From Escherichia coli (GTDB lineage Bacteria; Pseudomonadota; Gammaproteobacteria; Enterobacterales; Enterobacteriaceae), in NCBI RefSeq assembly GCF_048403405.1, contig NZ_CP183129.1: DNA of 64,000 nucleotides. One strand, written 5' to 3'. The notes below the pieces were generated by a model, which did no database searches, was not told the DNA's origin, and was given only the letters and a program-made list of their open reading frames with translations. Below, one piece after another: positions 10,724 to 11,649 of this stretch. The position numbers were made by a program, and so were the translations under genes. The stretch's first letter is position 1. Every line of letters starts with the position of its first letter.

Positions 10724-11019
10724 AGTTCTAAAAGTAGTTTTCAATGATAAATAAATGGCTATTTTTACGAAGAGATAATAACGTAGATTGAAACAATATG
10801 TATTATTGATTAAGTAAATGGGATTATTCTTCACACTACATCCATTTTAGTGTCACTACCAAAGAAAAAGGGGCTACGTTTTCATGTAACCCCTTGATTT
10901 ATTTGGTGGGCTAGCAGTGACTGAATTGGTGCTGTAATTGGTTGAAATATTTCATCTAATGTCTGGTTCAACTTTCCTTAGCTGCCTGAAAATTTTTTGA
11001 GCTTACCCAGCAATAACAG

Positions 11020-11082
11020 CGTTACGGTGCACCACGCCTGACTGAAGAACTGCGTGCTCAGGGTTACCACTTCAACGTAAAA
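11020..11082 (+). pseudogene. IS3-family transposase OrfB N-terminal fragment (scar)
   Basis: In-frame translation [21 protein letters not shown] closely matches IS3 OrfB ([20 protein letters not shown]); preceded by a stop and followed by unrelated sequence. Confidence 0.65.
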
Positions 11083-11154
11083 CCGTGGCAGGAGGTCCGG
11101 ACTGAAAAAACTGCTCAGGACATTATCGGCAGGGTACGCACTGCTAGTCTGTAA

Positions 11155-11250
11155 ACTGAACCGACTGGGGCGCAGTATGTGGCATCTTGTCGTGCTGTTG
11201 GAGGAGCTGTGCAAACGTGGTATTAACTTTCGTGCTCTGGCCCAATCTAT
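11155..11250 (+). pseudogene. pinH: Pin/Hin-type serine DNA invertase internal fragment (pinH-like remnant)
   Basis: Translation LNRLGRSMWHLVVLLEELCKRGINFRALAQSI matches the conserved [32 protein letters not shown] core of Pin/Hin invertases; no N-terminal catalytic region present. Confidence 0.6.
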
Positions 11251-11649
11251 ATTTCCCCAACAATGGGGGGACGAATGCTGTAAAAGTAAAACAATCTGCG
11301 ATCTCAAAGTTATTGTGTGATTTTTATGTGAGCAGAAGATATTCATCAGAAACGATTATGTAAATCATTTTATTTTGCCAACGGCCTCATTGTCGAAAGA
11401 AAAGAATACGCCCGTGTTTCCTGAATAGATTGACTTTTTTATCCAACCACACTTCAGCGCACTGCGTTTAAAAAATGCCTCATTCTTATGCGGAATATCA
11501 TCATTTCATCATGATGTCTTTGATGAGCGGTGAACACAATACACTTGCGCTGTCTCTTCAGGATGAATCCCCTGGTCTGGTGCCTGTGGGCTGATGTTGC
11601 AGCAGAGCTAAGGTTGCTTAAACGCTACTCAGTATTCACTTTTCAGAGG

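Follow-up and report, generated by a model that had tools for sequence, protein, structure and literature searches.

The serine DNA invertases of the Din family (Gin, Cin, Hin and the PinE protein of e14) and the insertion sequence IS3, with its products InsE and InsF, are the closest described systems to a composite remnant, here called the scar, that lies upstream of the autotransporter gene ypjA in a 64,000-nucleotide stretch of Escherichia coli DNA (the window). One part of the scar resembles PinE, with 84% identity in DNA and 71% in protein over PinE amino acids 39-94, but it is without the catalytic serine, the HTH, the invertible segment, the crossover sites and the adjacent tail-fibre genes of Din-family systems. 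The other part resembles IS3 in its left terminal repeat, which is exact in K-12, and in a piece that is 89% identical to the start of insF. However, it lacks the OrfA, frameshift site, DDE domain and right end that intact IS3 has, and the IS3 remnant would therefore be unable to transpose. Judged from the sequence, positions 10998-11274 of the window are most probably (a probability of roughly 0.93) a non-functional composite pseudogene, the fixed footprint of old rearrangements, which does nothing today.

The chromosomal block in the window reads ileY, ypjCB, scar, ypjA and ssrA from left to right (Table 1). The K-12 annotation of the locus gives the same order (ypjA, pinH as pseudogene b2648, ypjB, ypjC, ileY), and the order ypjA-pinH-ypjB-ypjC-ileY is also found in a published gene list (PMC10652928). 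The ypjCB product is 484 amino acids long here; K-12 is without about 98 bp of the gene (window 9899-9996), which splits it into ypjC and ypjB. YpjCB alleles are unusually divergent among E. coli and Shigella, with 76-100% amino acid identity among the 120 matches listed. A GC-rich hairpin with a 10-bp stem (AAGGGGCTAC...GTAACCCCTT) and T-runs on both sides is located at 10868-10895, 145 bp past the ypjCB stop. It looks like a bidirectional intrinsic terminator, as a prediction, and the scan flagged the minus strand.

Table 1. Features of the ileY-ssrA region, in window coordinates
Feature	Coordinates	Strand	Remarks
tRNA ileY	8437-8512
ypjCB, intact, DUF5507 + DUF5508	9269-10723	+	From the ORF list and Pfam; AT-rich block left of the scar
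Antisense 122-aa ORF over both remnants	10978-11346	-	Judged not to be a gene
IS3 left inverted repeat, terminal 18 bp	10998-11015	+	Canonical IS3 nt 1-18 = TGAgCTTACCCAGCAATA
Internal IS3 fragment, ~nt 544-618 of the 1258-bp element	11016-11089	+	Encodes InsF (OrfB) aa ~61-83, part of the HTH_21 region
Internal fragment of PinE-type serine DNA invertase	11090-~11274	+	pinE nt ~121-305, PinE aa ~39/42-101
ypjA module	11271-16243	+	385-bp upstream region, ypjA/EhaD autotransporter gene and 10 bp
ypjA/ehaD autotransporter gene	start ~11660, stop 16233	+
ssrA/tmRNA	16394-16756	-

The invertase remnant is aligned by blastn with K-12 pinE over window 11093-11239 (pinE nt 124-270; 123 of 147 positions, E 1e-42), and the similarity runs on, with indels, to about 11274 (pinE nt ~305). 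At the protein level, tblastn with PinE matches 40 of 56 residues (E 1e-22), and the Pfam Resolvase family (PF00239) scores 39.1 bits against a cut-off of 23.3, over profile positions 48-102 of 145 only. The conserved motif KLDRLGRS is present as KLNRLGRS. About 60 internal invertase codons survive, without the rest of the catalytic domain and without the long dimerisation helix. The N-terminal catalytic serine, which belongs to the first ~10 residues of PinE (MLIGYVRVSTNDQ), is missing; homology starts at PinE amino acid ~39, and the sequence upstream of 11090 is derived from IS3. Towards the C-terminus, no HTH family was found in the invertase frame, and homology stops at about amino acid 101 of 184. 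The nearest intact relatives, at 83-87% DNA identity, are the PinE-type invertases of P2-like and Mu-like phages, phage-plasmids, e14 and E. coli genomes. Searches of phages and plasmids returned only these PinE-type genes and copies of IS3, and gave no match to the 275 bp between ypjCB and the IS3 end.

All 240 bp of K-12 pinH (b2648) align with window 11081-11320 at 97.9% identity, in the same frame and with the same ends, and PGAP places here a pseudogene starting at 11084, a partial "recombinase family protein" without both termini. By this comparison the invertase piece is the already annotated K-12 pseudogene pinH and not a new observation. K-12 pinH is annotated as far as the stop of its open frame at 11320, which is past the end of the invertase homology. 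In the literature, pinH was met in gene lists only, and no discussion of it was found. The feature is an ordinary one, and the analysis confirms pinH as a dead piece from the interior of an invertase of the PinE type. What can be added is that an IS3 left end and an InsF fragment (10998-11089) are fused to it, a detail that is absent from the K-12 RefSeq record of pinH and from the PGAP records compared.

For this IS3 portion, blastn aligns window 11003-11089 with nt 528-615 of K-12 IS3A (78 of 88 positions, 89%; E 4e-28), and tblastn matches InsF amino acids 58-83 (21 of 26; E 5e-11). The Pfam family HTH_21 gives 21.6 bits (E 2.6e-4) for the 23-aa IS3 piece, which is under its cut-off of 28.1. 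Among insertion sequences the nearest is IS3 itself, at 89-92%. Window 10998-11015 reads TGAGCTTACCCAGCAATA and agrees at 17 of 18 positions with the canonical IS3 left end, which was taken from strain C5, where a fresh IS3 copy of 1258 bp is present; the mismatched base is T in K-12 and in six other aligned strains, so that K-12 matches at 18 of 18. This is the only match to the IS3 left end in the 64-kb window at up to two mismatches (0 expected, 0 in 100 shuffles). Between the inverted repeat and the InsF fragment, IS3 nt ~19-543 are missing. In all, about 92 of 1258 bp of the element and 26 of 288 InsF codons survive. InsE, the product of IS3 orfA, has no match in the window; at the scar itself there is no match to the DDE part of InsF (amino acids 84-288) and no right end or right inverted repeat, only the left one.

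From two peptides, the initial annotation had recognised the remains of an IS3 transposase and of a Pin-type invertase lying side by side. Both are found on the plus strand, in different frames: a 21-letter IS3 OrfB-like peptide at 11020-11082 and LNRLGRSMWHLVVLLEELCKRGINFRALAQSI at 11156-11251. With InsF and PinE as queries, tblastn is strongly significant, and so this reading stands, as the blastn E values and the Resolvase score above its cut-off also indicate. The gap of about 70 bp that had been placed between the two remnants separates only the quoted peptides; the invertase homology reaches back to ~11090, and the remnants abut at a junction located at 11089-11093. Two parts of the structure had been missed, namely the IS3 left end and the invertase similarity out to ~11274.

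The scar was also said to record successive insertion and deletion events, and this is borne out by three internal junctions that can be mapped. The junctions are read directly from the sequence; we infer the order of the events and the mechanism by which the ypjA module was placed. At first, the site would have had a PinE-type invertase gene such as those found in P2-, Mu- and e14-like prophages. IS3 would then have inserted upstream of the invertase in the same orientation, with its left end still intact at 10998. A deletion would have fused IS3 nt ~618 to invertase nt ~121, with loss of the DDE domain and right end of IS3 and of the start, catalytic serine and 5' enhancer region of the invertase. 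A second deletion, inside IS3, would have taken nt ~19-543 between imperfect direct repeats (TTACCCnGnnAnA). The endpoints of this deletion share the imperfect direct repeat TTACCCaGcaAtA / TTACCCgGtcAaA, which can also be read as TTACCCAGCAATA and TTACCCGGTCAAA; because the deletion lies between two such repeats, slippage or illegitimate recombination is suggested as its cause. In a last step, the invertase would have been truncated near codon 101, at the point where the module of the ypjA autotransporter starts, and the scar, formed once, would have been inherited along with ileY-ypjCB-ypjA.

The likely source of the invertase piece is an old prophage tail-fibre inversion module, of which tail-fibre and crossover-site remnants are absent. 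An ancestral invertible segment had been called conceivable but not demonstrable, and that assessment holds. There is no Din-type crossover core (AAACCNNGGTTT) near the scar, and the 64-kb window has two 1-mismatch matches (at 7541 and 21220), with 2.2 expected. Neither an intact invertase nor a longer IS3 remnant is present at the site in any of 5426 complete E. coli genomes.

In the same set of genomes, the 341-bp scar gives a single ungapped megablast match of 340-342 bp, at 89-100% identity, in 2987 of 5426 (~55%), and a wider 961-bp region is matched in 3002. The junctions are identical in eight strains that are up to 9% divergent; these shared junctions, together with the uniform ungapped match, argue that the scar formed once. 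Strain C5, which has an annotated IS3 transposase and "DNA invertase" at the locus, was considered as a possible ancestral state and rejected. Its complete IS3 (1258 bp; C5 locus L005, 5743-7000) lies inside the scar, is flanked by a 3-bp target duplication, CGG, at window 11139-11141, and has the old IS3 remnant still in place upstream. Because of the duplication and the retained remnant, the C5 element is taken to be a later, independent insertion. A second IS3-family element in the same strain (L005, 7961-9138) truncates ypjA about 440 bp into the gene, and the two C5 elements together indicate that IS activity is continuing at the locus.

The state before the scar was not found in the E. 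coli genomes, in the GTDB species representatives or in the YpjCB protein search. The scan of GTDB representatives with YpjCB returned two short contigs only, one from a Planococcaceae MAG and one from an Arthrobacter assembly. As homologues from other species these were rejected: the longer contig has this E. coli scar as well, and both look like contamination. The protein search with YpjCB gave nothing outside E. coli and Shigella among the 120 matches listed.

The substitution pattern among eight strains, the only ones used for the selection tests, is that of sequence decaying by neutral point substitution. In the invertase frame the variable sites are distributed 9/11/11 by codon position (pN/pS 1.43), and in the IS3 frame 7/4/3 (pN/pS 2.39). 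Neither frame has an excess at third positions, and both sense frames contain stop codons in several strains. Nucleotide diversity (pi) is about twofold higher in the scar than in the adjacent ypjA upstream region (0.076 vs 0.036). The scar could be of use in phylogenetics, to mark ileY-ypjCB-ypjA haplotypes, and as a reference for the neutral rate.

One might suppose that the antisense 122-aa ORF, which the initial annotation had noted and which is present, is a real, conserved protein-coding gene and that the sense-strand similarities are incidental. The frame is open (~125 codons) in seven of eight diverse strains, in strain CB8671 a 53-aa antisense "hypothetical protein" annotated by PGAP covers part of it, and some other records have an extra hypothetical protein under the match. 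About 4% of substitutions create a stop, as estimated from the genetic code. The open frame in seven of eight strains is unremarkable, because with ~50 variable sites about two changes to a stop are expected and one is observed, the stop in the O121 strain. Evidence of a conserved protein, which had been named as the result that would speak against the sense-strand reading, was not seen: the ORF has no Pfam family, its pN/pS is 0.69, and its variable sites are distributed 26/16/24 by codon position, with no third-position excess and no sign of constraint. The sense homologies (E 1e-42 and 4e-28) are overwhelming, and the antisense frame is therefore best regarded as the reverse complement of two former coding stretches. 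A functional antisense gene is extremely unlikely on these grounds.

The sense strand offers a small frame of its own, and an in-frame remnant peptide, either the 47-aa ORF at 11177-11320 or the 80-codon pinH frame, could in principle act as a dominant-negative or modulator of resident Pin-type invertases. In favor of such a peptide, the frame is open over 78-80 codons in six of eight strains and there is an ATG at 11177. However, two strains have stops, the pN/pS of 1.43 is that of the invertase frame given above, the peptide would be without catalytic serine, long dimerisation helix and HTH, and no promoter-like site was found on the plus strand of the scar. We give this idea next to no probability. 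Both the antisense ORF and the 47-aa sense ORF were rejected as genes on their substitution patterns.

The scar is retained in every genome that has the locus, and this retention would be explained if it had been recruited to regulate ypjA in cis, for example as a silencer or binding region upstream of the gene or by giving rise to an antisense transcript. Its position is consistent with such a role, since in all ~3000 genomes with the locus it precedes the ypjA start by 385-660 bp, and there are two promoter-like sites on the minus strand, one directly downstream of the scar (11396-11367) and one that overlaps the antisense ORF at its start (11364-11336). However, these two promoter-like matches compare with 3.1 expected in the region, and no Rfam family was found in or near the scar, either at the gathering threshold or at E<=1. 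The scar is twice as diverse as the ypjA upstream region proper, and a paralogous module at the ymgJ-ycgI locus has the same 355-bp upstream region without any scar. Regulation of ypjA by the scar is thus very unlikely, and the preferred reading is again that of an inert footprint.

The paralogous module lies at the ymgJ-ycgI locus beside minE (L006, 4005-4712). It is 89% identical to window 11274-11629, in the ypjA upstream region, and 96% identical to window 15889-16243, which comprises the 3' end of ypjA (the last ~345 bp) and 10 bp more, while the body of the autotransporter gene has been almost wholly deleted from it. The ymgJ-ycgI locus is matched in nearly all of the 5327 genomes with any match, and the ypjA locus in ~3000. 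A ymgJ homologue is also present in the window, interrupted by a stop and a frameshift. Upstream of ypjA there is also a 39-aa ORF (11475-11594, plus strand), which PGAP lists as hypothetical protein WP_001120794.1, and the paralog at the ymgJ locus is annotated too. The copies of this ORF differ at 5 nt, all at codon position 1 or 2, and no protein-level constraint is seen.

At its 3' side the invertase fragment breaks off no more than ~4 bp from the left end of the ~5-kb ypjA module, and this coincidence of the break with the boundary of a duplicated module is a mildly interesting point. It could mean that the scar is the footprint of an adhesin gene cassette that was captured by the invertase gene of a prophage or transposed into it. 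The ends of the cassette would in that case define a so far unrecognised route by which autotransporter genes move between chromosomal sites. We consider this improbable.

The initial annotation had also described the scar as a recombination-prone boundary of an island, and this is correct in part. GC content is 27-36% to the left of ~11000 and 44-58% to the right, with the step up at the IS3 end, and the ypjA module begins at the other end of the scar. The scar is an internal seam between the AT-rich ileY-ypjCB block and a ypjA module of differing composition. The variable region spans from ygaQ/ileY to ssrA, and the scar does not form its outer edge. The whole ileY-ypjCB-pinH-ypjA block is absent from ~2000 of 5426 genomes, where other islands replace it, and in these genomes divergence begins to the left of ileY, at window ~8050. 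In strain MS20649, for example, the block is absent and the site is occupied by IS2, an ankyrin-repeat gene, IS1 and a type I R-M system.

Only 160 bp separate the ypjA stop from the 3' end of ssrA in the source strain, and a CP4-57-type prophage is absent at ssrA. Because the source strain has the block but no prophage between ypjA and ssrA, which is the CP4-57 site in K-12, the block is not a part of CP4-57. Elsewhere in the window, an apparently complete IS3-family element is found at 46322-47679 on the plus strand. On one side of it is an rRNA operon, with its 5S rRNA at 46088-46203, and on the other a gene for a kgtP-like permease (47886-49286). The element contains two ORFs, one OrfA-like (46322-46852) and one OrfB-like (46957-47679), and the product of the latter shares 32% identity with InsF.
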